Shown: piece by piece, positions 7,206 through 39,904 of the stretch
How the letters are laid out: every line of letters begins with the position of its first letter
Position numbering within the stretch: position 1 is the first letter of the stretch
Assembly (NCBI GenBank): GCA_050050035.1
Contig: JASFVB010000003.1
Coordinates: 1 to 39,904 of the forward strand
DNA length: 39,904 nt
DNA from: Acidimicrobiia bacterium
GTDB taxonomy: Bacteria > Actinomycetota > Acidimicrobiia > Spongiisociales > ZC4RG35
Direction: 5' to 3'
Translations under genes and position numbers: made by a program
Notes under the pieces: generated by a model
The model's database searches: none
Told to the model about the DNA's origin: nothing
What the model saw: the letters and a program-made list of their open reading frames with translations, nothing else

Positions 7206-7279
7206 TGGAGCTGAGGGGATTTGAACCCCTGACCCCTTGACTGCCAGTCAAGTGCTCTGCCGAACTGAGCTACAGCCCC
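7206..7279 (-). tRNA. tRNA-Ala (GGC)
   Basis: Reverse complement GGGGCTGTAGCTCAGTTCGGCAGAGCACTTGACT-GGC-AGTCAAGGGGTCAGGGGTTCAAATCCCCTCAGCTCCA; cloverleaf with G3:U70; CCA not encoded. Confidence 0.97.
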
Positions 7280-27300: not shown

Positions 27301-28872
27301 TCAAGCCTCGATCTCTGCCGCTGCCGCCTCGGCAGGGTTGGGCGTGGGGCTGACCGTCTCGTCGATGATGACGCCGCGGCCCGCACAGTGCTCACACTTG
27401 TGGGAGAACTGCTCGAGCAACCCCGCAGACACGTTCTTCCTGGTCATCTCAACCAAGCCGAGGTGAGACACCTCGAAGACCTGAGTACGGGTCTTGTCCT
27501 TTGCCAGAGTCTCTTTGAGCCGTCGTAGCACTTTCTGTTGGTTCTCGACGCTCTCCATGTCGATGAAGTCGATCACGATGATTCCACCGATGTCACGCAG
27601 ACGAAGCTGCCGACCGATCTCCTCGGCGGCCTCGAGGTTGTTCTGGAGAACCGTCTCTTCGAGAGTGCTCGAGCCGACAAACCGCCCGGTGTTGACATCG
27701 ATGACGGTGAGCGCCTCGGTTCTGTCGATGACGAGATGGCCACCGGAAGGCAGAAAGACCTTTCGATCGAGCGCCTTCTTCAGCTGGTCGTCGACGTGAT
27801 AACGATCGAACAGAGCGATCTCGTCCTCATAGTGCTGCACCTTGCTCACCAAATCGGGAGCGGTTGCCTGGAGGTAGGAGATGACCGTGTCGAACGACCT
27901 CTTGTCGTCGATGAGGAGCTTGCGGAAATCTGCCGTGAAGTGCTCACGGATCACCTTGATCAACAGCTCCGGCTCCTCGTGGATGAGCCGAGGGGCAGCC
28001 CCTTCATCGGCCTGTTCCCTGATCGCAGCCCACTGCTTGGTGAGTCTCGAGATGTCGGCGGCGAGCTCCTCGGCTGACGCATGCAGAGCGGCCGTCCGGA
28101 CGATGACGCCAAACCCTTTGGGGCGGACTTCGTTGATCACATCGCGAAGACGGTTGCGGTCGGCGTCGGGGAGACGACGGCTGATGCCCACACTCTCCGA
28201 ATCGGGCACGAGCACCAGGTAGCGCCCTGGCAGTGACGGCATCCCGGTGAGACGAGCGCCTTTGGCGCCCATGGCGTCCTTGGTGACCTGGACGAGGACC
28301 TTGTCCCCCTCTTTGAGGACTTCCTCTATCCGCTTGCCGCCGCGCCCCCCGTTTCTGCGTGACCCGGGCGTGACATCGGAGGCGTAGAGAACGCCGTTCT
28401 TCGACGCTCCGAAGTCGAGAAAGGCGGCTTCCATGCCGGGCAGGACATTGCGCGCGATCGCCAGATAGATGTTCCCGGCAACCGAGTTTGTGTCGTCCTT
28501 TGCCACATAGTGCTCAACGAGGACCGGACCTTCGAGGATCACGATCTGGGTCTGAGATCTGTTGGCGCTGACCAGCATCTGTTTCCGAGCCGACTCGGTG
28601 GGGACGATTATCTCGTCGTCGACGGGGCGTCGTGACCTCGTGCGCGAGGTCGAGATGCCGCTCCTGTTCGGCGACGAGCCCTTCTTCGATTTCGAGCGCT
28701 TCTTGGAGCCGTTGCTCCCCTTTGCCTTTTTGCCTTTGTTGGGCGCCGGTGCCTCGACACGGCGCACCTCGACCCTCTGGCCTTTGACGAGCACGGTCTT
28801 GTGCTCCTCTACGGTGCCGCCCGCGGACGATTTGCGGACGATCTCTGGGCCCTTCCGGCGGAATAGAGCCAT
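27301..28872 (-). CDS. rne: Rne/Rng family ribonuclease
   Basis: GNIYLA, LPGMEAAFLD, VQVTKD...KGARLT, IDVNTG, LRDIGGIIVIDFIDM, CEHCAGRG Zn link; GAGGAG RBS. Confidence 0.95.
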   Translation of the reverse strand: MALFRRKGPEIVRKSSAGGTVEEHKTVLVKGQRVEVRRVEAPAPNKGKKAKGSNGSKKRSKSKKGSSPNRSGISTSRTRSRRPVDDEIIVPTESARKQMLVSANRSQTQIVILEGPVLVEHYVAKDDTNSVAGNIYLAIARNVLPGMEAAFLDFGASKNGVLYASDVTPGSRRNGGRGGKRIEEVLKEGDKVLVQVTKDAMGAKGARLTGMPSLPGRYLVLVPDSESVGISRRLPDADRNRLRDVINEVRPKGFGVIVRTAALHASAEELAADISRLTKQWAAIREQADEGAAPRLIHEEPELLIKVIREHFTADFRKLLIDDKRSFDTVISYLQATAPDLVSKVQHYEDEIALFDRYHVDDQLKKALDRKVFLPSGGHLVIDRTEALTVIDVNTGRFVGSSTLEETVLQNNLEAAEEIGRQLRLRDIGGIIVIDFIDMESVENQQKVLRRLKETLAKDKTRTQVFEVSHLGLVEMTRKNVSAGLLEQFSHKCEHCAGRGVIIDETVSPTPNPAEAAAAEIEA

Positions 28873-28989
28873 TTGTTCTCACTCCTCTGAAATGTCGTGG
28901 CGATCCCTGACCTGGAGGGACGCGACCAAAAAGAATCGAATGCGGGAGACGCAGCGAATGAGGAGCTCGGAACGTCTTCCGACCACATC

Positions 28990-28998
28990 AGGATAACA
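28990..28998 (-). promoter_or_regulatory. Putative extended -10 (TGnTATCCT) for rne
   Basis: Minus strand TGTTATCCT about 118 nt upstream of the rne ATG. Confidence 0.35.
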
Positions 28999-29051
28999 GA
29001 ATCGGGGCTCGACACGTAGGTCTGCCGTCGAATGAGACCGCGAAAACCGAA

Positions 29052-29636
29052 TCAGCTGAGGTTGAAGGCAGGCTGCTCCGGCTCGGCGGGGTGGTAGCAC
29101 ATGCGGCATCGTGCCTCGTAGGCGCCCTGGGCGCCCAGCACCACGAGATCCTCGGATCGCACGATTCGCTGCGTGTAGAGAGCCGGCCCCCCGCAACGAT
29201 GACACACCGCCAGCATCTTCGTCACGTACTCGGCACGGTCACACAACGAAGGGATCGGCTCGAACGGGCGTCGCAGGAAGTCCGTGTCGAGACCCGCGAC
29301 GATCACCTGCTTGCCGGTGGCGGCCAGGTTGTCCACGACGTCGACCAGACCGTCATCGAAGAACTGGCCCTCGTCGATGCCGATGACACGCGTCTGGTCG
29401 GATACTGCGCGCAGCATGTCGGTCGACGAGCCCACCGGCTGGGCGTCCACCTTCCAGTCGGAGTGTGACACGACCTCCCTGTCGGCGTAGCGATCGTCGA
29501 GCTCCGGCTTGAACACCTGCACCGGGATGCGTGCGATCTGGGAGCGGGTGACACGACGAATCAGTTCCTCGCTCTTGCCGCTGAACATGGGGCCACAGAT
29601 GACCTCGACCCATCCGTCCTGACTTCGCCGATACAT
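29052..29636 (-). CDS. tdk: Thymidine kinase
   Basis: CGPMFSGKSEELIRR, IDEGQF, AGLDTDF, C-x2-C and YEARCRMC zinc motif. Confidence 0.96.
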   Translation of the reverse strand: MYRRSQDGWVEVICGPMFSGKSEELIRRVTRSQIARIPVQVFKPELDDRYADREVVSHSDWKVDAQPVGSSTDMLRAVSDQTRVIGIDEGQFFDDGLVDVVDNLAATGKQVIVAGLDTDFLRRPFEPIPSLCDRAEYVTKMLAVCHRCGGPALYTQRIVRSEDLVVLGAQGAYEARCRMCYHPAEPEQPAFNLS

Positions 29637-29662
29637 CCCGGGCGAGAGTACATGGGTACGAA

Positions 29663-29779
29663 GTATCGGTCGCTTCGCCCCCTGGAGTATCGGGTACGCG
29701 GATTCTGTCCCCAGGGCGGCGCCAGCCGCCCGATACCCAATACTCAGTACTCCAGGGCGGCGCCAGCCGTCCGATACCC
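29663..29779. repeat. Cluster of three REP-like hairpin units (two direct, one inverted)
   Basis: CCAGGGCGGCGCCAGCCG(C/T)CCGATACCC at 29711-29738 and 29752-29779; related inverted copy at 29663-29689. Confidence 0.75.
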
Positions 29780-29789
29780 CGGAGCCGTG

Positions 29790-30962
29790 CTAGGTCAACT
29801 GGTTCTCACCCGGCACGGGTGTGCGCATGAGCCAAATCGAGTTGGCCACGCCCAGCGACAATGCCATGGCCATGTAGAACGACCCACCCTGGCTGAGGAA
29901 TGGGAGCGGCAAACCGGTCACGGGCATGATCCCGATGGTCATGCCGATGTTGACGAAGACGTGGAACACGATCATCGCCGCGATCCCGGCAGCGATCAGC
30001 GCCCCAAACCGATCTCTGGCATTGGCGGCAATGACCAGGAGACGCCAGACGATGACCGCGAAGGCGACAATGACGACCAGCCCACCGACGAGCCCGAGTT
30101 GCTCGGCGACGGCGGTGAATATGAAGTCGGTCTCCTGCTCCGGCACGTACTGAAAGCTCGTGAGAGAGTCCTCGGCGAGGAATCCTTTGCCGAACAACTG
30201 ACCGGAGCCGATGGCGTTCTTCGACTGTGTGATCTGATAGGCGATCCCTTGCGGATCGGCCTTGTCAGGGTCGAAGAGAACGTTGAGACGGTCGAGCTGG
30301 TATTCACTCAGCAACCTGTCCTTGTACTGCCACACGAGGAGCAGCCCACCACCGATGAATGTGGACAGTGCAGCCATCTGACGCCAGCCGGCACCACCGG
30401 CGAACAGCATCGTGACGAGGACGAATCCGAAGACGAGTGCGGTGCCGAGATCGGGCTCCCGGAGGATCAGATAGCCAGGTATGGCCACGATCAGAACCGC
30501 CTGAGCCATCTTCGTCCAGCTCAGAGTACGTGGCACCGTCAACTCGTCTCGAGACACCGGCGGTGCGAGAAACGAGGCGAGGACGACGATGACCACGACC
30601 TTGGCGAACTCGGCGGGCTGGAGGCTGAAGAACCCGAGCGGAATCCATCGATTCACGTTGTTCTCCGGAGGGAAGAGAAACACCGCGACCAGCAAGATGA
30701 GGACGATCAGCGAGGCCGCCGGGATGATGCCCCGATACTCCCGGTAGTCGATGTTGGACACGACCAGATAGATGATCAGACCGGCAGCGACGAACATCAT
30801 CTGGCGTTCCATCGAGAAGGTCCCGCTGTCCCGTGTCGCCGAGTAGATCATCAGCAGGCCGACTGCGGAGAGAGCCAACATGGTCCCGAACAGGATCCAA
30901 TCACTCCGGTTGTTGCGGCGAATGACACCGACTTCGCGGATGCGGGTGAGAACAGCCGTCAT
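29790..30962 (-). CDS. rodA: Rod shape-determining protein RodA (SEDS)
   Basis: LQPAEFAK, EPDLGT, AIGSG, VPEQETDFIF, GIMPVTGLPLPFLSQGGS. Confidence 0.96.
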   Translation of the reverse strand: MTAVLTRIREVGVIRRNNRSDWILFGTMLALSAVGLLMIYSATRDSGTFSMERQMMFVAAGLIIYLVVSNIDYREYRGIIPAASLIVLILLVAVFLFPPENNVNRWIPLGFFSLQPAEFAKVVVIVVLASFLAPPVSRDELTVPRTLSWTKMAQAVLIVAIPGYLILREPDLGTALVFGFVLVTMLFAGGAGWRQMAALSTFIGGGLLLVWQYKDRLLSEYQLDRLNVLFDPDKADPQGIAYQITQSKNAIGSGQLFGKGFLAEDSLTSFQYVPEQETDFIFTAVAEQLGLVGGLVVIVAFAVIVWRLLVIAANARDRFGALIAAGIAAMIVFHVFVNIGMTIGIMPVTGLPLPFLSQGGSFYMAMALSLGVANSIWLMRTPVPGENQLT

Positions 30963-32923
30963 CAGTCAGCCCTCTCGCCGGCGATTATCGGCGTCGGCTC
31001 GTTGCCCATCAGGTACTGGAGGATGTGACGGGCCACCGGTGCGGCGATTCCGCCGCCAGAGCCCCCCTCCTCGATGATCACTGCAACGACGAATTGCGGG
31101 TTGTCGACGGGCGCCACCCCCATGAACCAGGCGTGGTTGTCCTTGGTTGCCGAGGACTGACCTGTGCCGGTCTTGCCACCCACCAGCTCGAGCCCTGGAC
31201 CGAAGTCGCTGAACGCCGATCGCGCCGTTCCCGACGTGACCACCCGGTTGAGATCGGTGAGAAGATCCCTTCGAGTCGATTCGGAGATGTCCACCGTCCC
31301 GACCACCGGGGACTCGATGTCCTCGATGAGCTCACCGTCCGCTCCCACGATCCTGTCCACGACGCGCGGCTCCATCACCGTCCCACCGTTGGCGAGAACG
31401 GCGTAGGAGACTGCGGCCTGGAGCGGTGTCGCGGTGAACGCACCCTGCCCGATGGCGAAGTCCATGAGGTCACCACCGAAGAACGGGCTGACATACTCAG
31501 GGTTCAGACGCTCGGCGTCGAGCCGCGGCGGCTCGTCGGGGTGCTCCCGCTGATACTCGGCCCACTCCTCGAACAGCTCACGGGTGGGCACGATGCCCGC
31601 CGCCTCGCTGGCGAGGTCGATCCCGGTCTCGGAGCCGTAACCGAGGCTTTTCGCCCAGTCCTGGATGACGTTCTCGCCGACCTGGTCACGGTTGAGCCAG
31701 GCACCCAACCCGACTGACCAAAAAAACTTGTTGCACGAGTTCTGCAGCGCCCCGTGCAGATCCAGCCAGCCGAGATCCCGGGGGTAGTACCAGTCGAACT
31801 TTCGCTGAGCCGAGCCGTCCGAGAGGGCGAAGACCAGCTCGCCGTCGCAATCCACTTCACTGCCGTTGCGGACGAACTCTGCGTCGGGCAACGGCAGGTT
31901 TTCCTCGACGAATGCGGTGTAGGTGATTGCCTTGAACGTCGACGCCGGCGGGTAGAGACCGCTCACGGCCAGGTTGTTGAACGCAAACGACTCGTTCAGG
32001 TCGGAGAAGGTCCCGGAGTCGATGCCGGCCACGAACAACTGTGGGTCAAAATCGGGTACCGACGCGAGGGCCAGGACCTCGAAGGTCCTCGGGTCGAGGA
32101 CCACCGCAGCAGCCCGGGTGGTCTCGCTGAATACATCCTCACCGTTGGCTCGATCCACATCTTTCACCGAGTTGGAGAGAGCAATGCCCTCCTCCAAAGC
32201 CAACTCGACCACCGTTTGCAGCTCGGAGTCGATGGTGAGGACCAGAGACGCCCCAGGGATGGGCTCCACGGCCGGTCTCTGCTCGATGATCTCCCCCTGT
32301 CGCACCCGGTATTCGACCGAACCGGACGTGCCGCGGAGATGGTCGTCGTAGAACCTCTCCACGCCGAGCTTCCCTATGCGGACGCTGGGGTCGAGCTCGG
32401 GGCGCTCATCGAGATCTGCTTGATCGGGTAGACCGAGGTGACCGACGACGTGCGCCAGCGTGTTGCCGGACAGGTAGACGCGCTCGGGCACATCCACGAT
32501 CTCAACACCAGGCATCGTTCCGAGCTGCTCCTTGAGCTGATTCGCCAGGGTCGTGTTGACCGTCGCCACCTCGAAACGTCCGTTTATGCCCGCCTCGTCG
32601 TACATGCGCTCCAGCTCGTTCGGGTCGATCGCCAGGATCGCCGAGAGCCGGCGGAGCAGGTCGTCTCGTTCCTCAGGCTGGACGAACGTCCGGTCCACGT
32701 ACACGGCCGGAACCAGCCGACTGGTGACCAGTTGGTTCCCGTTGCGGTCGTATATGTCGCCACGTGACGCCGGGGCCGTCTTGGCCAGCCACGTCTGTTC
32801 CTCCGCTGCCTGGGCTATCGCCGGGCCCTCTGCGACCTGGACGAACCAGAGACGCAGGCCTATCACCGCGAACATCATCACGAAGACCGTGGCCATGACT
32901 GAGAGTCGAACTGCGAACTTCAT
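30962..32923 (-). CDS. mrdA: Penicillin-binding protein 2 (class B)
   Basis: RGDIYDRNG, GKLGVE, STFK (SxxK), SCN (SxN), KTGTG; ATG at 32923 overlaps the mreD stop. Confidence 0.93.
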   Translation of the reverse strand: MKFAVRLSVMATVFVMMFAVIGLRLWFVQVAEGPAIAQAAEEQTWLAKTAPASRGDIYDRNGNQLVTSRLVPAVYVDRTFVQPEERDDLLRRLSAILAIDPNELERMYDEAGINGRFEVATVNTTLANQLKEQLGTMPGVEIVDVPERVYLSGNTLAHVVGHLGLPDQADLDERPELDPSVRIGKLGVERFYDDHLRGTSGSVEYRVRQGEIIEQRPAVEPIPGASLVLTIDSELQTVVELALEEGIALSNSVKDVDRANGEDVFSETTRAAAVVLDPRTFEVLALASVPDFDPQLFVAGIDSGTFSDLNESFAFNNLAVSGLYPPASTFKAITYTAFVEENLPLPDAEFVRNGSEVDCDGELVFALSDGSAQRKFDWYYPRDLGWLDLHGALQNSCNKFFWSVGLGAWLNRDQVGENVIQDWAKSLGYGSETGIDLASEAAGIVPTRELFEEWAEYQREHPDEPPRLDAERLNPEYVSPFFGGDLMDFAIGQGAFTATPLQAAVSYAVLANGGTVMEPRVVDRIVGADGELIEDIESPVVGTVDISESTRRDLLTDLNRVVTSGTARSAFSDFGPGLELVGGKTGTGQSSATKDNHAWFMGVAPVDNPQFVVAVIIEEGGSGGGIAAPVARHILQYLMGNEPTPIIAGERAD

Positions 32924-33423
32924 GCGTACCTGAAAGCTGTCGTGTCTCGATCGATGAGCCTCACGATCATCGGAGCGAACAGCCAGGCCAGGATGGCGTT
33001 GGAGATCGGGACCGCGAGCAGAAGACCCAACACCCCGTTCCCGAGCAAGATTCTCTGGCCGAAGAGTGTCCCAACCAGATAGAGCAGGACCGCACCGGCG
33101 AAGGTGAGCGCACCTGCCCAGAGCCCGGTGATGAAACGCCCGATGTCGGCTCTCTCCCTGGTTCGCAGCGCAAGATAGGCAACGACCGTGAACACCATCG
33201 CCCGCAAACCAAGCAGCGCAGACCCGAGGAGGTCGACCACGAGCCCTGCGAGAAACGCAGTCCCGAGAACCAACTCCGGACGCACCCGTGTCAGCGCCAG
33301 GAGAATGACCGCCAACATCACCAGGTCGGGCACGAACAACTCGGTCTGGCTGAACAACGTGGTCTGAAGGACGACGCTGACCAGCAGCAACCCGGCAATG
33401 ACCAGCACCGGTCGGAGACGCAT
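32920..33423 (-). CDS. mreD: Rod shape-determining protein MreD
   Basis: Hydrophobic 167 aa, PDLV, GLVVDLL, between mreC and PBP2. Confidence 0.9.
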   Translation of the reverse strand: MRLRPVLVIAGLLLVSVVLQTTLFSQTELFVPDLVMLAVILLALTRVRPELVLGTAFLAGLVVDLLGSALLGLRAMVFTVVAYLALRTRERADIGRFITGLWAGALTFAGAVLLYLVGTLFGQRILLGNGVLGLLLAVPISNAILAWLFAPMIVRLIDRDTTAFRYA

Positions 33424-34331
33424 CAGCCGTCACCCGCGGTCGTGGTCGTCGTCGACCCGGGTGTCGTGGTCGTGGTTGTCGTCGTGGTGACGGTGATGGC
33501 TGCTATCGGGTCAGGGGGCCAGGCGAGGACGACGACAACTCTCAGAGTGTCCGGATCGGCGAACGGTCGGACGGTCGTCGTCAACGCGTCGTCGACCGAA
33601 GGTGCCGCGTCAGCGGTCACCTCACCCACCGGGTACCCGGCCGGGAATCGAACCGATGTCGACGAGGTGACCACCTTGTCGCCGGCGAGGACCGGAGCTC
33701 GTGCCGGGTTGATGTCGAGCCGCATCTCGTCGGTCGCCACCTGGGGTGTGACAGCCCCTATCTGCTCCCCCACCAGTACTGTGACGGCGTTGGATCCTGC
33801 CGTGATCGGGACGACGATCGCCGTCCCCTCGGTCACCTGTTGAATCGAGCCGACAACGAATCCACTGGTGTCGATCACCGGCTGGCCGACAGCGATGCCC
33901 GACGACGTCCCCTTGTCGATGTAGAGCGCGTTGTCGAACGCGTTGGGCTGGCCGATGACGTTGGCCGGCGTCGTGCCGACTCCGATGCCAGTCGACTCGA
34001 GATCGAGAAGCTCCTCGTAGAGCGCCAAGCGTGCCCGGTCGTCCTCGAAGGCGATCAAGGCCGCCTCCGCTTCGGCCAGCTGACGCTGGAGCTCGAGATT
34101 GGTCTCGCGAAGGGTCGCCACGCTGGACAGTGAGTCGATGAGATCGACCACAGGGTTGACGACGAACGCGGTCGCCTTCTGGAGTGGTGCCACGATCGTC
34201 TGCGTACCGGAACGAAGCACACCCGTGACACCACCACCTTCGGATCGCACGTCGAATGTCATGAGCAGCAACCCGATGACCAGGAGAGTCACCAGAGTGG
34301 GGAGTGTTCGGTCTCGAGGTTGGTTCAGCAT
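33423..34331 (-). CDS. mreC: Rod shape-determining protein MreC
   Basis: N-terminal TM, coiled coil, IDKGTSSGI, GDKVVTS...FPAGYPVG; Thr-rich tail; ATG at 34331. Confidence 0.92.
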   Translation of the reverse strand: MLNQPRDRTLPTLVTLLVIGLLLMTFDVRSEGGGVTGVLRSGTQTIVAPLQKATAFVVNPVVDLIDSLSSVATLRETNLELQRQLAEAEAALIAFEDDRARLALYEELLDLESTGIGVGTTPANVIGQPNAFDNALYIDKGTSSGIAVGQPVIDTSGFVVGSIQQVTEGTAIVVPITAGSNAVTVLVGEQIGAVTPQVATDEMRLDINPARAPVLAGDKVVTSSTSVRFPAGYPVGEVTADAAPSVDDALTTTVRPFADPDTLRVVVVLAWPPDPIAAITVTTTTTTTTTPGSTTTTTAGDG

Positions 34332-34353
34332 CGGAGCGAGCTGGAGCGGGATA

Positions 34354-35385
34354 TCACGGCCTGGCCGATGACACCAGCACGTTGTGGAGGATGTCGAAAT
34401 CCTCCAGACACTTGCCCGATCCGAGCACCACCGATTGGAGCGGCTGTGCAGCCGTGACGATGGGCATTCCCGTCTCGTGGGCAAGACGATGATCCAGACC
34501 TACCAGCAAGGCTCCCCCGCCAGTGAGAACGATCCCACGCTCGACTACGTCGGCCGCAAGCTCGGGAGGGGTCTTGTCCAGCGTGAACTTGACCGCATCG
34601 ACGATGGCCTGGGTCGGCTCCTCGATCGCCTCCCTCACCTCTTGGCTGGACAAGAGGATCGTCTTGGGCAGACCGGTGACCAGGTCGCGGCCCCTCACCT
34701 CTGCCGAGGGCTCTTCGGAGTATGGCCATGCCGAGCCCACGGCGATCTTGAGCTGCTCTGCGGTGCGCTCGCCCACGAGCACGTTGTGTTCCTTCTTGAC
34801 CCAATCGATGATCGCCGAGTCGAGCTCGTCTCCACCCACGCGAATCGAGCGTGAGACGACGATTCCGCCCAGGGAGATGACGGCCACCTCGGTTGTGCCG
34901 CCCCCGATGTCGACCACCATCGAGCCGGAGGGCTCGGCAATGGGCAGACCGGAGCCGATTGCGGCGGCCATCGGCTCTTCGATGGTGTACGCCCGCCGTG
35001 CCCCGGCGTGGTAGGCCGCCTCCTCGACGGCCCGGCGCTCGACCGGGGTGATTCCTGACGGCACACACACGACGATGCGTGGCCGCGCCCATTTGCGCTT
35101 GTGCACCTTCTGGATGAAATACCGGAGCATCTTCTCGGTGATGTCGAAGTCGGCGATGACACCGTCACGCAGCGGCCGGATGGCGGTGATGTTGGCCGGT
35201 GTGCGCCCGATCATGCGCTTTGCCTCCATACCCACTGCCAGCGCACGGTTGTTTTGCGAGTTGATTGCCACCACCGACGGCTCGTTGAGCACGATGCCAC
35301 CCCCACGCACGTAAACGAGCGTGTTCGCAGTGCCGAGGTCGATGGCCATGTCCTGGCCGGCAAATGAAAGAAGGGTTTCAGCCAT
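34354..35385 (-). CDS. mreB: Rod shape-determining protein MreB
   Basis: AIDLGTANTL, RPLRDGVIAD, EEPMAAAIG, DIGGGTTE, LTGGGALL. Confidence 0.97.
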   Translation of the reverse strand: MAETLLSFAGQDMAIDLGTANTLVYVRGGGIVLNEPSVVAINSQNNRALAVGMEAKRMIGRTPANITAIRPLRDGVIADFDITEKMLRYFIQKVHKRKWARPRIVVCVPSGITPVERRAVEEAAYHAGARRAYTIEEPMAAAIGSGLPIAEPSGSMVVDIGGGTTEVAVISLGGIVVSRSIRVGGDELDSAIIDWVKKEHNVLVGERTAEQLKIAVGSAWPYSEEPSAEVRGRDLVTGLPKTILLSSQEVREAIEEPTQAIVDAVKFTLDKTPPELAADVVERGIVLTGGGALLVGLDHRLAHETGMPIVTAAQPLQSVVLGSGKCLEDFDILHNVLVSSARP

Positions 35386-35482
35386 TGCTGGGAGCACTCC
35401 CGCGCGGACCCCCGGAAGTGTAGGTGCCTACCCCACCTTCTGCCATAGGCGCCGGGTGGTGGCTCCTCCGGCCCGGGTGTGG

Positions 35483-35890
35483 TCAGTCGCCGAAGAAGAT
35501 GGACAGCTCACGTGAAGCGCTCTCGGGCCCGTCGGAGCCGTGAACTATGTTCTCGGTGACGGCGAGCCCGAAATCACCACGGATCGTGCCCGGTGATGCC
35601 TGTTTGGGGTCGGTCGCACCCATGAGGTCCCGGCACACGCCGATGGCCTCTTCGCCGGACCACTCCATCGCCACGACAGGACCAGAGGTGATGAACTCGA
35701 GCAGATCACCGAAGAACGGCTTCTCGACGTGCTCTGCGTAGTGTGTGCGCGCCAGGTCCTCGTCGATGCTGAGCCCCCGAATCCGCTCCAAGGTCAGGCC
35801 CTTGCGCTCGAATCGGGTGATGACGTCACCGACCAGCCCCCGGGCCACACCGTCCGGCTTGACCATTATGAATGTGTGTTCCACTGCCAT
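35483..35890 (-). CDS. ndk: Nucleoside-diphosphate kinase
   Basis: [30 protein letters not shown]. Confidence 0.97.
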
Positions 35891-35931
35891 GCGGCGTCAC
35901 ACGGTATCGGTTGAGTGACGACAGGGCGAAG

Positions 35932-37218
35932 TCAACCGAGGAGCGTTCGCACCTCTCCAACCAGGTACAACGAGCCGGTCACGAGCACCGCTCCTTCCGG
36001 CCCGGCCTCGGCGCGAGCCATGTCGAGGCCGGTTTCCACCGACTCCGCAGCGAGAACCGGGACGTCGGACAGTGTTTCGGCAGCCCGGTCGGCCAACTCC
36101 ACGGGCGACGTGGACCGCTCGGACGAGACAGCCGTGGTGATCAAGCCGCTGGTCACCGGTGCCAGACGCTCGACTATCAGATCCACGTTCTTGTCGCCCA
36201 TCAACCCGAGGAGAACGTGCCATTTCGTGGTCGGGTATTCCTCCTGGAGAGACTCGACGAGAGTGGCCATCCCGTCGGCATTGTGCGCTCCGTCGACCAT
36301 CACGAATGGGGAAGAGGCCAGCGGCTCCATACGTCCGGGGGCTGTCGCGACCTCGGCCGCATCCTTGACTGCATCGGTGTCGAGCTTCCGACCGATCAAG
36401 GCCTCGGTTGCCGCGACGGCTATTGCCAGGTTGGTCAGCTGATAGTGACCGTGAAGAGGGAGGAACACGTCCTCGTATGTGGCTTCGGCTCCTGCGATCG
36501 TCGCCAACCATCCCCCGACACCTCGCTCGTACTCTTCCACTCCGTAGTCCGTGCCGTAGCGACGGTGCTGTATCCCGAGCTCGCGTCCCCGCGCCCCGGC
36601 AACCTCCGATGCATCCCCGGGGAGCGGCCCGGTGACGAGAATCGATCCTGGACCGGCGATGGCCAGTTTCTCCCCGGCGATTCCTGCCAGGTCCTCACCG
36701 AGGTGCTCGGTGTGATCCCGGCCAATCGAGGTGACGACACAAACATCGGCATCAACGACGTTTGTCGCGTCGAGACGCCCACCGAGGCCAACCTCGATGA
36801 CGGCTGCGTTGACCGCTTGATCGGCAAAGAACGCGAAACCCGCCGCGGTCGTCAGCTCGAAGTAGGTGTTTGGGTCGTCACCGGCGTCTTCGCGCAGATC
36901 GGCGAACGCGGCTACATCGGAGACTGCGAGGGCGAATTCCTCACTCGTCGACTCCCGCCCGTTGACCGCGAGCCTCTCTTCGATCCGCTGAAGGTGAGGT
37001 GACGTCAGAGTCCCGGTAGTCAGCCCGTGTGCAACCAGCAGCAATGTCGCCAATCTCGACGTTGACGTCTTGCCGTTCGTGCCGCCCACGTGGATGATCG
37101 GATAGCCATCCTCGGGCCGGCCCATGAGGTCGAGGAGGTCACGCATCCTGCCCAGACCCGGCCGCCCGCCGAGCCCGATGTGACGCTCGACGTATGCAAC
37201 GGCCTGGTCGTAGTTCAT
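35932..37218 (-). CDS. folC: Folylpolyglutamate synthase/dihydrofolate synthase
   Basis: HVGGTNGKTST, TSPHL, EVGLGGRLDATNV, PGRME, DGAHN, VTGSLYLVG. Confidence 0.96.
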   Translation of the reverse strand: MNYDQAVAYVERHIGLGGRPGLGRMRDLLDLMGRPEDGYPIIHVGGTNGKTSTSRLATLLLVAHGLTTGTLTSPHLQRIEERLAVNGRESTSEEFALAVSDVAAFADLREDAGDDPNTYFELTTAAGFAFFADQAVNAAVIEVGLGGRLDATNVVDADVCVVTSIGRDHTEHLGEDLAGIAGEKLAIAGPGSILVTGPLPGDASEVAGARGRELGIQHRRYGTDYGVEEYERGVGGWLATIAGAEATYEDVFLPLHGHYQLTNLAIAVAATEALIGRKLDTDAVKDAAEVATAPGRMEPLASSPFVMVDGAHNADGMATLVESLQEEYPTTKWHVLLGLMGDKNVDLIVERLAPVTSGLITTAVSSERSTSPVELADRAAETLSDVPVLAAESVETGLDMARAEAGPEGAVLVTGSLYLVGEVRTLLG

Positions 37219-37221
37219 GAG

Positions 37222-37253
37222 CAGAGCCCCGGGAGGTTAGCCCCGGGGCTCTG
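37222..37253 (-). terminator. Hairpin after the surface protein gene
   Basis: CAGAGCCCCGGG-N8-CCCGGGGCTCTG, 12-bp perfect stem. Confidence 0.65.
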
Positions 37254-37280
37254 TATGCCCACTCTGTGGTTAGTGGAGAT

Positions 37281-39200
37281 CTAGGCCTCTTCGTTCCATC
37301 CGAAGAGGTATGTGCTTCCGGTCACGATGACGACACCCGCAGCCAGGAGCATGAACCCGAGCTTCACCAGCGGGTCGCTCTCGATGCCGGTGAACGGCAG
37401 GGTGTCCGGCGTGGAGCAGGTCTCGATCGTCACCGAGCCCGTCGTATCGAAACCGGCCGGGAACTCGAAACCCTCACTCGGCGTCGCCGACCAGTTGTAG
37501 ACGGCTCCCTCTGGGACGGTCACAGACCCATCATCGGAGAACGTGCCGACTATGTCGCCGTCGGAATCGGTGACAACCACCGTGGCACCGCCGGCGACGG
37601 ACACCGTCACCGAGATGACGCCCTCGCCGTCGTCGCCGTCAACCACGCATGTGCCTCCGACCGTCACGACGATCGCAGCGCCTACAACGTCTTCGATCTG
37701 GTTGGTGAACGTGCAAGTCACGACCTCGTCGGCCGAGACATCGATGTTCGCCGGGTCTGAGCCGTCATCGCACACCGCACTGACCAGGGTCCATCCGGTC
37801 GGGACCGTCTCACTCACCGAGTAGCCGTCGCCGACCGCCACGGCACCCGACGAGCTCGACTGGCCGTGCGCCAACGTGTTGTCCCCGAGTGTGAATCCGG
37901 TCGTGTTGAACGTGAACTCGAAGACCTGACTCCCCTCCCCGAGGACGATCTTCTCGACGATGATCTCACCCGACTCCTCAGGCGGGGTGCAGTCCTCGAT
38001 ATCGATGTCACCAGACGTGGTGCCCGACAGTATGAAACCGTCCGAAGCGGTCGCCTCCCACGAGTAGGAGGCGTTCTGGGGCACGTTGACGGAGCCGTCC
38101 TGAGTGAAGGTCGCAATGACGCCATCGGCGTCGGAGACATCCACAGTCGCGGCATCGTCAACTGAGATCTGCACTGAGATCTCGCCAACGCCCACGTCTT
38201 GCTGGACCACGCAGACACCGGCGACACTCACCGTCACGTCGCACGGATCGATCGTGAACTGCCCTTCGTCGGGCTCGGCGTTGTCGAACCCGTCAGCAGC
38301 CTCGGCATCCCAGTAGTACGTCCCTGGAGCGAGTGAGAAGGAGCCTCCGCTGCTGGTCGACAGGACGTCGTCGGTCATTGCCGCATCCGAGTAGATCGTG
38401 ACCGTTGCGCCCGAGGTCGGATCGACAGTCACCTGGACCGTGCCGGCGGGCACACCCTGATCATCGACCGCGCAGACTCCCGCATCGACTGTGACGGTCG
38501 TCGTGCAGTCGTCGATCGTGACCGAACCGCTGCCAGGGCCATCCAGTTGGTAGCCATCCGCCGGTGTGGCCGTCCAGTAGTACGTGCCCGGGGAGAGGTC
38601 GTCGAGTGTCGTCGAAGACGAAGTCGACCCGACCAGATTGGACATGCCTGCATCGCTGTAGACGTCCACCGTTGCGCCCGAGCCCGGGACAATGGTGATA
38701 TCGATCGAGCCGGTCGGCGCCCCGGCGTCGTTCACGTCGCACGAGCTACCGACGAGTGTGACCGCCACATCCTGTGGTGGCTGGGTGCATGCATCCTGGG
38801 TCGCGTTCACCGTGAACGACCACTCACCCTGCTGCCAGTTCGGTGAGAACGAGCCGTCCGACCCGAGGTCATGCACCGGCTGGGCGTTGTCGTCGTAGGC
38901 GTCGACCACCACCTGGAGGGTGTGCGATTGGCTGTCGTCCCACGAGCCGGAGTTGCTGTAGGACGTCCAGTTCGTGTCATTGTCGACGACCTGGCCGTCA
39001 ACGGTGACCGTTATGTCGGCGCCCTGGAAATACGCGGTCAGATTGACCGACCATCCGTCACAACCCCATGAGACGGTTCCTTGGTGCGCCCAAGCCGGAG
39101 CGGCGACGATTGCCATGAATGACAGCAGCATCGCCACTGCGGAGATCAACGCGAGTGCGCGTCGTGAGACCTCACCGCGAATAGTCGTGGCGAAGCTCAT
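37281..39200 (-). CDS. Secreted acidic surface protein with Ig-like repeats, one SpaA/CnaB-like domain and an LPXTG-type (LPFTG) sorting signal
   Basis: Signal peptide ending APAWA, four ~85-aa Cys-bracketed repeats, GEIIVEK...YSVSE...CTFTN domain, LPFTG followed by a TM helix. Confidence 0.85.
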   Translation of the reverse strand: MSFATTIRGEVSRRALALISAVAMLLSFMAIVAAPAWAHQGTVSWGCDGWSVNLTAYFQGADITVTVDGQVVDNDTNWTSYSNSGSWDDSQSHTLQVVVDAYDDNAQPVHDLGSDGSFSPNWQQGEWSFTVNATQDACTQPPQDVAVTLVGSSCDVNDAGAPTGSIDITIVPGSGATVDVYSDAGMSNLVGSTSSSTTLDDLSPGTYYWTATPADGYQLDGPGSGSVTIDDCTTTVTVDAGVCAVDDQGVPAGTVQVTVDPTSGATVTIYSDAAMTDDVLSTSSGGSFSLAPGTYYWDAEAADGFDNAEPDEGQFTIDPCDVTVSVAGVCVVQQDVGVGEISVQISVDDAATVDVSDADGVIATFTQDGSVNVPQNASYSWEATASDGFILSGTTSGDIDIEDCTPPEESGEIIVEKIVLGEGSQVFEFTFNTTGFTLGDNTLAHGQSSSSGAVAVGDGYSVSETVPTGWTLVSAVCDDGSDPANIDVSADEVVTCTFTNQIEDVVGAAIVVTVGGTCVVDGDDGEGVISVTVSVAGGATVVVTDSDGDIVGTFSDDGSVTVPEGAVYNWSATPSEGFEFPAGFDTTGSVTIETCSTPDTLPFTGIESDPLVKLGFMLLAAGVVIVTGSTYLFGWNEEA

Positions 39201-39303
39201 GCTTCACCCCCCAGAGCCTTGGCGAACCGTGATGCCCACCGCAGCACGGCGCCTGAACGCCAGTCCAGCCTCTTCATTTGGCCTATCCCTTCAATCGTTG
39301 GGA

Positions 39304-39375
39304 CAGGTCGGTCTCACCACTGGCTCAACCGGACCGAGGTGACCGTTTTGCAGGTCCGGTTTCCTTGCCTCCCTA
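39304..39375 (-). ncRNA. c-di-GMP-II-like riboswitch aptamer (GAG variant)
   Basis: Minus strand UAGGGAGGCAAGGAAACCGGACCUGCAAAACGGUCACCUCGGUCCGGUUGAGCCAGUGGUGAGACCGACCUG: closing stem UAGG/CCUG, GGC/GCC, kink-turn-like loop, ACCGGACC/GGUCCGGU stem, pseudoknot GGUCACC with GGUGA(G)ACC. Confidence 0.8.
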
Positions 39376-39422
39376 TTTCCCCATGGATGGGTTAACCACC
39401 CACTGTGGTTCCTTGCCACACA

Positions 39423-39450
39423 GTGTTACCACGGTGTGGCCCGGTGTCAA
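39423..39450 (-). promoter_or_regulatory. Putative sigma70 promoter for the riboswitch leader
   Basis: Perfect TTGACA at 39450-39445 followed after 16 nt by an imperfect TAACAC. Confidence 0.4.
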
Positions 39451-39531
39451 TCAAATCGTCGACGGCGCGAAGCTACAACAAACCAGTCGGCGATGTAGTG
39501 CAGAATGGTGGGTCAGACGACCCAAATGAGA

Positions 39532-39904
39532 TCAGGCCGACCTCTCGGTGGGCTCTTCGATGGGCTCGTTGGGCACCAGGGTCGGGTTGACCTTCTTCTC
39601 CACGACGTCCCTGTCGATCATGACCCTCTCGACGTCGTCCCGGCCGGGGAGGTCGTACATCGTGTTGAGAAGGACCTCTTCCATGATGGCCCGCAATCCC
39701 CTGGCTCCCGTCGAACGCTTGATCGCCTGTTCGGCGATTGCCTCGAGCGAGTCCGGCGTGAAGATGAGCTCTACGTCGTCCATCTCGAACATCCGTGCGT
39801 ACTGCTTGGTCAGAGCGTTCTTCGGCTCGGTGAGAATCCGGATCAGTGCGTCCTGGTCGAGGTCCTCGACGGTGGCAGTCACCGGCAGACGTCCTATGAA
39901 CTCG
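39532..39904 (-). CDS. clpX: ATP-dependent Clp protease ATP-binding subunit ClpX (C-terminal part, truncated by window edge)
   Basis: [37 protein letters not shown]. Confidence 0.96.

Follow-up and report, generated by a model that had tools for sequence, protein, structure and literature searches.

The window analyzed here, i.e., the whole stretch of 39,904 nucleotides from the genome of an Acidimicrobiia bacterium, carries near its end a gene for a surface protein, which is preceded by a riboswitch and a short leader ORF. The features of this locus, in the order of predicted transcription, are as follows.

39422-39450, minus strand: predicted promoter, judged from sequence (TTGACA at 39450-39445, 17-nt spacer, AACACT at 39427-39422; start predicted near 39415)
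39395-39409, minus strand: short 5' hairpin, ACCAC/GUGGU (pattern in 63 of 109 copies)
39300-39381, minus strand: c-di-GMP-II-GAG aptamer with P1, P2, a kink-turn-like bulge, P3 and a pseudoknot (Rfam RF03169; RF01786 consensus; pocket spacing from PMC13715770)
39282-39307, minus strand: expression-platform hairpin between the P1 3' strand, CCUGUCCC, and GGGAUAGG, the ribosome-binding site (SD1) of the leader ORF (fold energies; own-versus-swapped test in relatives)
39197-39277, minus strand: 26-codon leader ORF, MKRLDW...GGEA (frame relation shared by 31 of 33 close homologues)
39189-39212, minus strand: second ribosome-binding site (SD2), GGGGGGUGA, at 39212-39204, and predicted junction hairpin GGUGAAGC-AUGA-GCUUCGCC at 39208-39189 with the stop/start in its loop (fold energy; swap and synonymous nulls)
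37281-39200, minus strand: surface protein of 639 aa with a signal peptide, repeated beta-rich domains, SpaA_4 at residues 413-501, LPFTG and a hydrophobic tail (sequence and domain search)

The surface gene sits between the 3' end of clpX and folC, names that were inferred from Pfam domains and neighbors, and a clpX-like C-terminal motif was found upstream in 67 of 85 loci holding a copy of the switch. The minus-strand run at 27301-37218 presumably consists of folC, ndk, mreB, mreC, mreD, pbp2, rodA, thymidine kinase and an RNase E/G-like gene; the Mur ligase domains of folC were confirmed by domain search. Between the surface-gene stop and the folC-like AUG lies a strong G+C hairpin without a U-tract (37222-37251, minus strand), which ends just short of the AUG, and a tRNA gene is found at 7206-7279 of the same strand (RF00005, 68.9 bits).

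The signal peptide of the surface protein was judged from its sequence, and an NCBIfam search with the 639-aa protein returned no match. The protein ends in ...FGWNEEA and lacks a positively charged C-terminal tail, which is Arg-rich in most homologues. The genome encodes two sortases or sortase domains, and an LPxTG-type signal was present in 64 of 69 complete targets of related switches, so that the listing of downstream genes agrees with the proposal of an earlier, sequence-only reading that the switch precedes a surface-protein gene, as do the signal peptide, SpaA_4 and LPFTG of the window protein. From these features the surface protein is likely sortase-anchored, and a role in adhesion may be read from its domain and anchor.

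A covariance-model scan of the window showed that 39381-39300 of the minus strand matches RF03169, c-di-GMP-II-GAG (clan CL00127), with 68.0 bits against a gathering threshold of 40 (E 1.2e-11), which bears out the proposal of a c-di-GMP-II-like riboswitch of the GAG variant. RF03169 was the top match of its clan, and two weaker clan matches were discarded; canonical c-di-GMP-II (RF01786) passed narrowly at the same site (55.4 bits, gathering 53.5) and scored below RF03169. The aptamer lies in cis in the 5' leader, sense to the gene and with its expression platform attached, and is thus a genuine member of a known Rfam family in its usual setting. An Rfam scan of 39100-39600 for a second, degenerate aptamer upstream gave chance-level matches only. 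A genome-wide copy count, which the sequence-only reading had proposed, found one copy in the host genome (150 of 2641 first-look candidates scored; genome 92.8% complete).

Among 61 related genomes, 31 carried RF03169, the host's included, with 45 matches, 34 of which lay inside fetched loci. A pattern scan of GTDB (75 loci) found matching copies mainly in records titled Acidimicrobiia; a viral pattern scan gave one locus, which was left out of the analysis. Clusters of three copies within ~4-8 kb were seen in three genomes (G017:C37, G040:C159 and G126:C1), and wherever a fetched locus held two or three copies, every one of them stood ahead of its own secreted-protein gene. One unpublished genome (G050) supplies one copy (L003) to both the 33-copy and the 111-copy sets used below, counts as one member of each 61-genome tally and adds three regions to one comparison; its removal affects no conclusion.

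Upstream of the aptamer, a loose promoter-like pattern, counted without a computed null, was present in 71 of 109 copies, and a strict sigma-70 scan did not list the window candidate. The element GGCAAGGAA does occur twice, at 39417-39409 and 39369-39361, as had been noted from the sequence, with the predicted start of transcription falling inside the first of the two. The suggestion that it offers alternative pairing was not borne out: it is a direct repeat, and among the 109 copies with enough upstream sequence a comparable 9-mer repeat was found in just 2, the window copy included, indicating that GGCAAGGAA is not a conserved feature. We therefore rejected it as an alternative-pairing element.

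Pseudoknot and ligand pocket of the GAG aptamer

Both strands of the pseudoknot were located where the sequence-only reading had claimed them, i.e., in loop GGUCACC (39344-39338) and in the 3' segment AGUGGUGAGACCG. UCACC pairs with GGUGA (39318-39314), and GG pairs with CC (39311-39310). The canonical RF01786 consensus has loop GGGCAC and 3' side AGUgGUGCAACCG. The same reading had described a change from GGUGCAACC to GGUGAGACC with a matching change in the loop. This holds for the first of two changes, but the second is unmatched. The GAG positions 67-69 correspond to G67, A68 and G69 at 39315-39313; the loop U faces A68, and the pseudoknot is kept. A U-A pair at position 68 was found in 29 of 33 copies and G-C in 4 of 33, showing that C68A is compensated by a G-to-U change in the loop, although the core letters at this pair formed part of the pattern by which copies were selected.

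In class II structures, the pocket follows the spacing 0, +8, +9 and +12 for the ceiling, the upper-base reader, the intercalated base and the lower-base reader, respectively (A61 by offset; A69, A70 and G73 in 3Q3Z numbering) (PMC13715770). Mapped on the window, these positions are A61 at 39321, G69 at 39313, A70 at 39312 and G73 at 39309. The canonical pocket residues A13, A61, A70 and G73 are all kept, and the canonical adenine A69 is replaced by G. Thus, C68A affects the pseudoknot and is compensated, whereas A69G replaces the reader of the upper nucleobase without compensation, a distinction that the earlier reading of the variant had overlooked. All 34 matches within fetched loci, as printed, have G69. 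Elsewhere in the phylum A68 occurs together with A69, indicating that the two variant changes are separable. Two copies from two genera of one family (L027 and L030) are of a GCG type (loop GGGCAC, GUGCGACC), with G69 and without C68A. A G14-C60 pair was considered as a variant-specific feature by comparison with the A9G/U55C mutant (PMC13715770) and was rejected, the canonical consensus being likewise G-C.

Expression platform and leader ORF

The sequence-only reading had also described a stem that uses the 3' strand of the closing helix and therefore excludes it. This stem forms in the free fold: CCUGUCCC (39307-39300), the 3' strand of P1, and GGGAUAGG (39289-39282) make an 8-bp hairpin of -12.9 kcal/mol. 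What had been overlooked is that it hides the ribosome-binding site of the leader ORF, whose AUG at 39277 comes 4 bases after the 3' arm. Calculated without pseudoknot or ligand energy, the core with P1 reached -22.7 kcal/mol and the core with the SD hairpin -29.6 kcal/mol, which suggests that OFF is the default state. In the free fold SD1 had an unpaired probability of 0.00, which rose to 0.54 once the aptamer was enforced. That SD1 is only 54% unpaired even then, and that the P1 register is poorly conserved below the two pocket-proximal pairs, count against the switch model.

To assess the pairing in relatives, we compared the P1 3' arm of each copy with its own and with swapped ribosome-binding regions in 32 parsed copies of the 33 that were chosen with the Rfam model, whose coverage does not go beyond P1 and leaves out the platform (one copy was unparsed and one parsed at a wrong AUG). 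The mean was -13.2 kcal/mol with the own region, -10.6 when swapped and -7.5 when shuffled; 0 of 5000 permutations were as low, a figure that is inflated by kinship among the genomes. Pairing of -5 kcal/mol or lower was found in 31 of 32 copies, and in relatives the P1 arm and its partner strand co-vary, the former differing between families and the latter changing along with it. A terminator was rejected as the platform, since a search of window positions 37000-39904 for terminator-like sites found none. The pattern of competing stems predicts a translational ON switch.

The AUG gated by SD1 begins the leader ORF and not the surface gene. In the sequence AUGA, the stop codon of the leader, UGA (39199-39197), overlaps with the surface-gene AUG (39200-39198). 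Among 111 distinct copies of the switch, 72 open a long, mostly signal-peptide-bearing ORF directly after the hairpin, and 31 open a short ORF ending N-UGA over the gene start. The latter number results from 32 copies called coupled after a one-codon parser artefact (L064) was dropped, and the rest comprises four unparsed copies and three other short ORFs, namely one that is seemingly frameshifted (L029), one parser miss (L053) and one with a longer same-frame overlap with the gene (L090). All 31 coupled copies have kept the SD hairpin intact.

When a profile of the N-termini of coupled genes was run over three frames of all 111 copies, 33 copies scored at least 60 bits, of which 31 were in the overlap frame, 2 were fused in frame and none were in the third frame. 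Three weaker paralogues carry an in-frame, leader-like N-terminal extension. The two copies in which the leader is fused in frame with the surface gene (the first copy of L081, and L083) share a one-base insertion at the same site. Together, the fused copies and the extended paralogues indicate that coupling is not obligatory. Leaders of eight lengths were found (9, 12, 19, 26, 27, 28, 29 and 30 codons), which implies at least 7 frame-keeping changes of length versus 1-2 that broke the frame; we calculate a chance of ~0.008 that at least 7 of 9 changes would keep the frame at one-in-three odds. Stop codons in the three frames of the leaders numbered 0, 34 and 16 over 812 codons. All of these counts overstate independence, given that the genomes are kin, that the profile was built on coupled genes and that the 78 extra copies were picked by a pattern which includes the P1 3' arm. 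The family membership, the ORF geometry and both possible pairings, together with their conservation, are what the analysis shows.

Single-base codon differences among the 29-codon leaders were 125 synonymous and 155 non-synonymous, and among the 27-codon leaders 22 and 38, as compared with 480 and 92 in signal peptides. These counts do not support a conserved functional leader peptide. Substitutions in the leader look near neutral for the peptide, suggesting that the frame weighs more, and the peptide itself is likely of little importance. A tree of the target proteins required 14 label changes for 10 groups and was noisy, with long-branch warnings, because the mature regions differ. Within the longer leaders two further hairpins are kept (pairing in 94% of cells, a value reached by 0 of 500 shuffles), to which the window's own leader aligns poorly.

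At the junction, an 8-bp hairpin of -13.3 kcal/mol with the loop AUGA is predicted, and it overlaps SD2. Pairing with the anti-SD, from the 16S tail located in the genome, gave -15.2 kcal/mol for SD2 versus -6.2 for SD1. In the 31 coupled copies, the junction averaged -17.2 kcal/mol with the own gene start and -15.5 with swapped starts (1 of 5000), and it was more stable than synonymous recodings in 25 of 31 (mean z -0.9). The window junction itself exceeds neither null (swap, -14.6 vs -14.4; synonymous, z +0.5). Occlusion of SD2 by structure in the leader body was rejected, there being no clear difference in accessibility on shuffling (0.24 vs 0.27). The junction signal is thus modest, and the conserved hairpins fit coupling by unwinding with moderate support.

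Candidate ligands

GAG-type variants were reportedly flagged as possible binders of another ligand by Weinberg et al. (2017, PNAS). In the available parts of PMC5737381, PMC9481103, PMC7583470, PMC5473149, PMC10043782, PMC6205966 and PMC7266159, we found no ligand data for the GAG variant. We slightly favor c-di-GMP over all other ligands combined; 3',3'-cGAMP is a possible but clearly less likely ligand, and the remaining candidates together are unlikely.

If the ligand is c-di-GMP, it would come from the only GGDEF-like protein of the genome, a REC protein with GHIGGDDF that is its sole, partial GGDEF match. This protein (L107:1111-2040; G000:C210) lies between rpe-like and ribD-like genes, and its domain is 87-96% identical across the genus. 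DxDxFKxxND and RGD are invariant in 30 of 30 fetched orthologues, and GGDDF was printed in 29, the pattern having caught another stretch in L165. The retained GD motif, besides DxDxFKxxND, would speak for synthesis of c-di-GMP, as would Asp in place of Ser at the Hypr site and the canonical cyclases of all six distant genomes with G69 copies would speak for c-di-GMP as the ligand. According to the available text of PMC8835794, a GGDDF domain can be active, as in GSU1937, whereas no cyclase activity was detected for the GGDDF/EAL protein PA3258, which counts against it. A full-length canonical GGDEF cyclase was found in 0 of 22 genomes of the genus, some of which are 98-99% complete, and 20 of 31 riboswitch-bearing genomes had no canonical cyclase match. 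The only EAL match in the genome is a fragment at a contig end. Furthermore, the genome encodes a stand-alone HD-GYP protein of 202 aa (G000:C1:1225-1830, minus strand; L202) with LHDVGK, HHERFDGAGYP and RAYQ, the last of which conforms to Rxx(Q/N). A second, membrane-bound HD-GYP-like protein (G000:C193:4161-4673) has RSYR and a GYG variant, and similar matches occur in most genomes of the genus. RSYR is a c-di-GMP-type RxxR motif and favors c-di-GMP; the HD-GYP with the intact motif carries the cGAMP-type RxxQ and disfavors it. In a 28-genome set from the phylum, 5 of 5 genomes with an RxYQ pattern match also carried a GGDDF homologue.

The same switch and relay could instead respond to 3',3'-cGAMP as the ligand of this lineage, with the REC-GGDDF protein as its synthase and the RxxQ HD-GYP as the enzyme that removes it, a possibility that we consider real but well short of even. 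It draws on the pocket, since in class II structures the adenine of 3',3'-cGAMP occupies the position that is read by A64 (A69 in 3Q3Z numbering), a base that is G69 in the window, and the variant in that study binds 3',3'-cGAMP at 11.1 nM (PMC13715770). It also draws on the lack of canonical cyclase matches described above and on RxYQ, which was present in 30 of 30 orthologues fetched from the host's family; in the available text of bioRxiv 10.1101/600031, cGAMP-selective HD-GYPs are distinguished by RxxQ/N, a rare motif (4.69% of homologues), and the excerpt of bioRxiv 10.1101/2021.11.05.467447 likewise gives RxxQ as a cGAMP signature. Against it, the site of the Hypr serine, Ser348 (a criterion from the available part of PMC8835794), is Asp in the GGDDF protein, with RGD in 30 of 30 fetched orthologues, and the genome also has the RxxR HD-GYP-like protein. 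In a sample of 121 genomes from the phylum, moreover, six distant genomes with G69 copies all had canonical cyclases and no RxYQ pattern match, the readable HD-GYP matches of five of them being RxYR or RxYH (1 of 9 loci had no motif), while four genomes with A69 in the fetched copy did match RxYQ. More remote is c-di-AMP or an unrecognized nucleotide, an improbable ligand that would be consistent with the DAC-domain protein in the genome and with the uncompensated A69G, and that is at odds with the unchanged reader of the lower guanine, G73, and with gene associations like those of canonical class II switches.

Co-occurrence added little to this comparison. RxYQ was matched in 28 of 31 riboswitch-positive versus 14 of 30 negative genomes, an association that we rejected: the genomes are kin, it fails at the phylum level, and it is weak at the order level because genuine RxYQ proteins of riboswitch-negative genomes escaped the strict pattern. 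Co-occurrence with the GGDDF protein is uninformative since this protein is present in 59 of 61 genomes. Neither an SMODS cyclase nor a c-di-AMP riboswitch was found in the search of the host genome, and a c-di-GMP-I search gave no match, its controls likewise being without a match. In one distant family, four genomes (G135, G091, G177 and G120) encode second GGDDF paralogues (L248-L251) that read AGSEV, the Hypr residue being Ser. These genomes also have RxYQ HD-GYPs, and terminator-like U-tracts follow their class II switches, which are of the A68-A69 (GAA) type.

With just one GGDEF-like protein in the genus, and one cGAMP-type and one c-di-GMP-type HD-GYP in the genome, the ligand looks directly testable, and so compact a signaling network bears both on the ligand of GAG switches and on the activity of a non-Hypr GGDDF enzyme. 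Tentatively, and as the most speculative form of the cGAMP proposal, the A69G class II aptamer might be a natural 3',3'-cGAMP riboswitch in these Acidimicrobiia, with a non-Hypr REC-GGDDF synthase and an RxxQ phosphodiesterase forming a circuit that acts on the wall-anchored protein via the leader-ORF relay. If so, the class II scaffold would be a natural cGAMP sensor and the output of a minimal circuit.

Relay model and comparison with known systems

We propose, with a probability of roughly 0.68, that the locus is a translational ON switch whose effect is relayed to a likely sortase-anchored protein through a leader ORF with an AUGA overlap, c-di-GMP being the most likely ligand. Ligand binding, switching, reinitiation and adhesion are what we infer from the features described. 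Without ligand, the SD1 hairpin would outcompete P1 and the leader ORF would stay untranslated, while the strong SD and the AUG of the surface gene would be held in the junction hairpin. A bound cyclic dinucleotide would stabilize P1 and the pseudoknot and so release SD1; a ribosome translating the leader would then melt the junction hairpin, stop at UGA and reinitiate at the overlapping AUG.

Two other accounts of the platform were weighed against this proposal. The locus might be a plain SD-sequestering ON switch, in which the leader ORF is a leftover of the 5' end of a paralogous gene and translation of the surface gene starts at its own SD in any case. The far better anti-SD match of SD2, the three paralogues with leader-like extensions, the two fused copies and the poor conservation of the leader peptide would all suit such an arrangement. 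An independent SD2, however, would escape a switch that acts on SD1 only, yet the SD hairpin is intact in every coupled copy, and the overlap frame is kept across eight leader lengths with no premature stops. We consider this account unlikely. Somewhat less likely still is that an untranslated leader leads to Rho-dependent termination or decay, with an output mainly at the RNA level. The lack of an intrinsic terminator in 37000-39904 and the two hairpins kept inside the longer leaders are compatible with it, and in the available text of PMC11260477 the authors of the ppe2 study considered this route. The requirement for a stop/start overlap would remain unexplained by it, leaders of 9 and 12 codons offer little room, and in ppe2 the loss of expression was not accounted for in this way, according to the same text.

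With respect to its own Rfam family, RF03169, the window copy is full-length and has the consensus GAG core, pseudoknot strands and pocket bases; the model ends at P1, and the SD hairpin and leader ORF fall outside its description. The proteins of the putative signaling circuit also have known counterparts. The host shares a GGDDF protein with the organism of GSU1937 (PMC8835794, in part), its own putative enzyme being REC-fused with Asp at the Hypr site. It also encodes an RxxQ HD-GYP, a putative counterpart of the PmxA-type RxxQ cGAMP phosphodiesterases described in the available part of bioRxiv 10.1101/600031.

Canonical class II switches of Clostridioides difficile are ON switches that precede CD2831, CD3246 and a pilin operon, i.e., adhesin and pilin genes (PMC11477304, available text). 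The window switch resembles these RF01786 switches in its fold, its predicted ON logic and its position before a gene for a likely wall-anchored surface protein. It differs from them by the pocket change A69G and by C68A, which is compensated, by a predicted output through translational SD sequestration instead of a terminator or ribozyme, by its leader-ORF relay and by a host without a canonical cyclase.

The closest parallel to the relay is the ppe2 B12 riboswitch of Mycobacterium tuberculosis, in which the uORF uPPE2 has an AUGA overlap that is needed for downstream expression by termination-reinitiation (PMC11260477, available text). Within the texts covered by our literature search, we found no relay of an SD hairpin and a leader ORF for a c-di-GMP switch, and ppe2 alone was comparable. 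Both systems have a riboswitch-controlled uORF, an AUGA overlap and delivery of ribosomes to the main gene, which was demonstrated experimentally for ppe2 and is suggested by conservation here. In the window the switch hairpin covers the ribosome-binding site of the uORF, as indicated by the predicted fold and the swap test, and the N-UGA overlap is found in 31 of 33 copies. The aptamers belong to different classes and the signs are opposite, ppe2 being an OFF switch and the window switch a predicted ON switch. Furthermore, PPE2 has no SD, as far as the available text describes it, whereas the surface gene of the window has a strong one within the predicted hairpin. What this locus would add to the known systems is a conserved two-step relay, composed of an SD hairpin, a leader ORF, an AUGA overlap and a second SD that is probably occluded.
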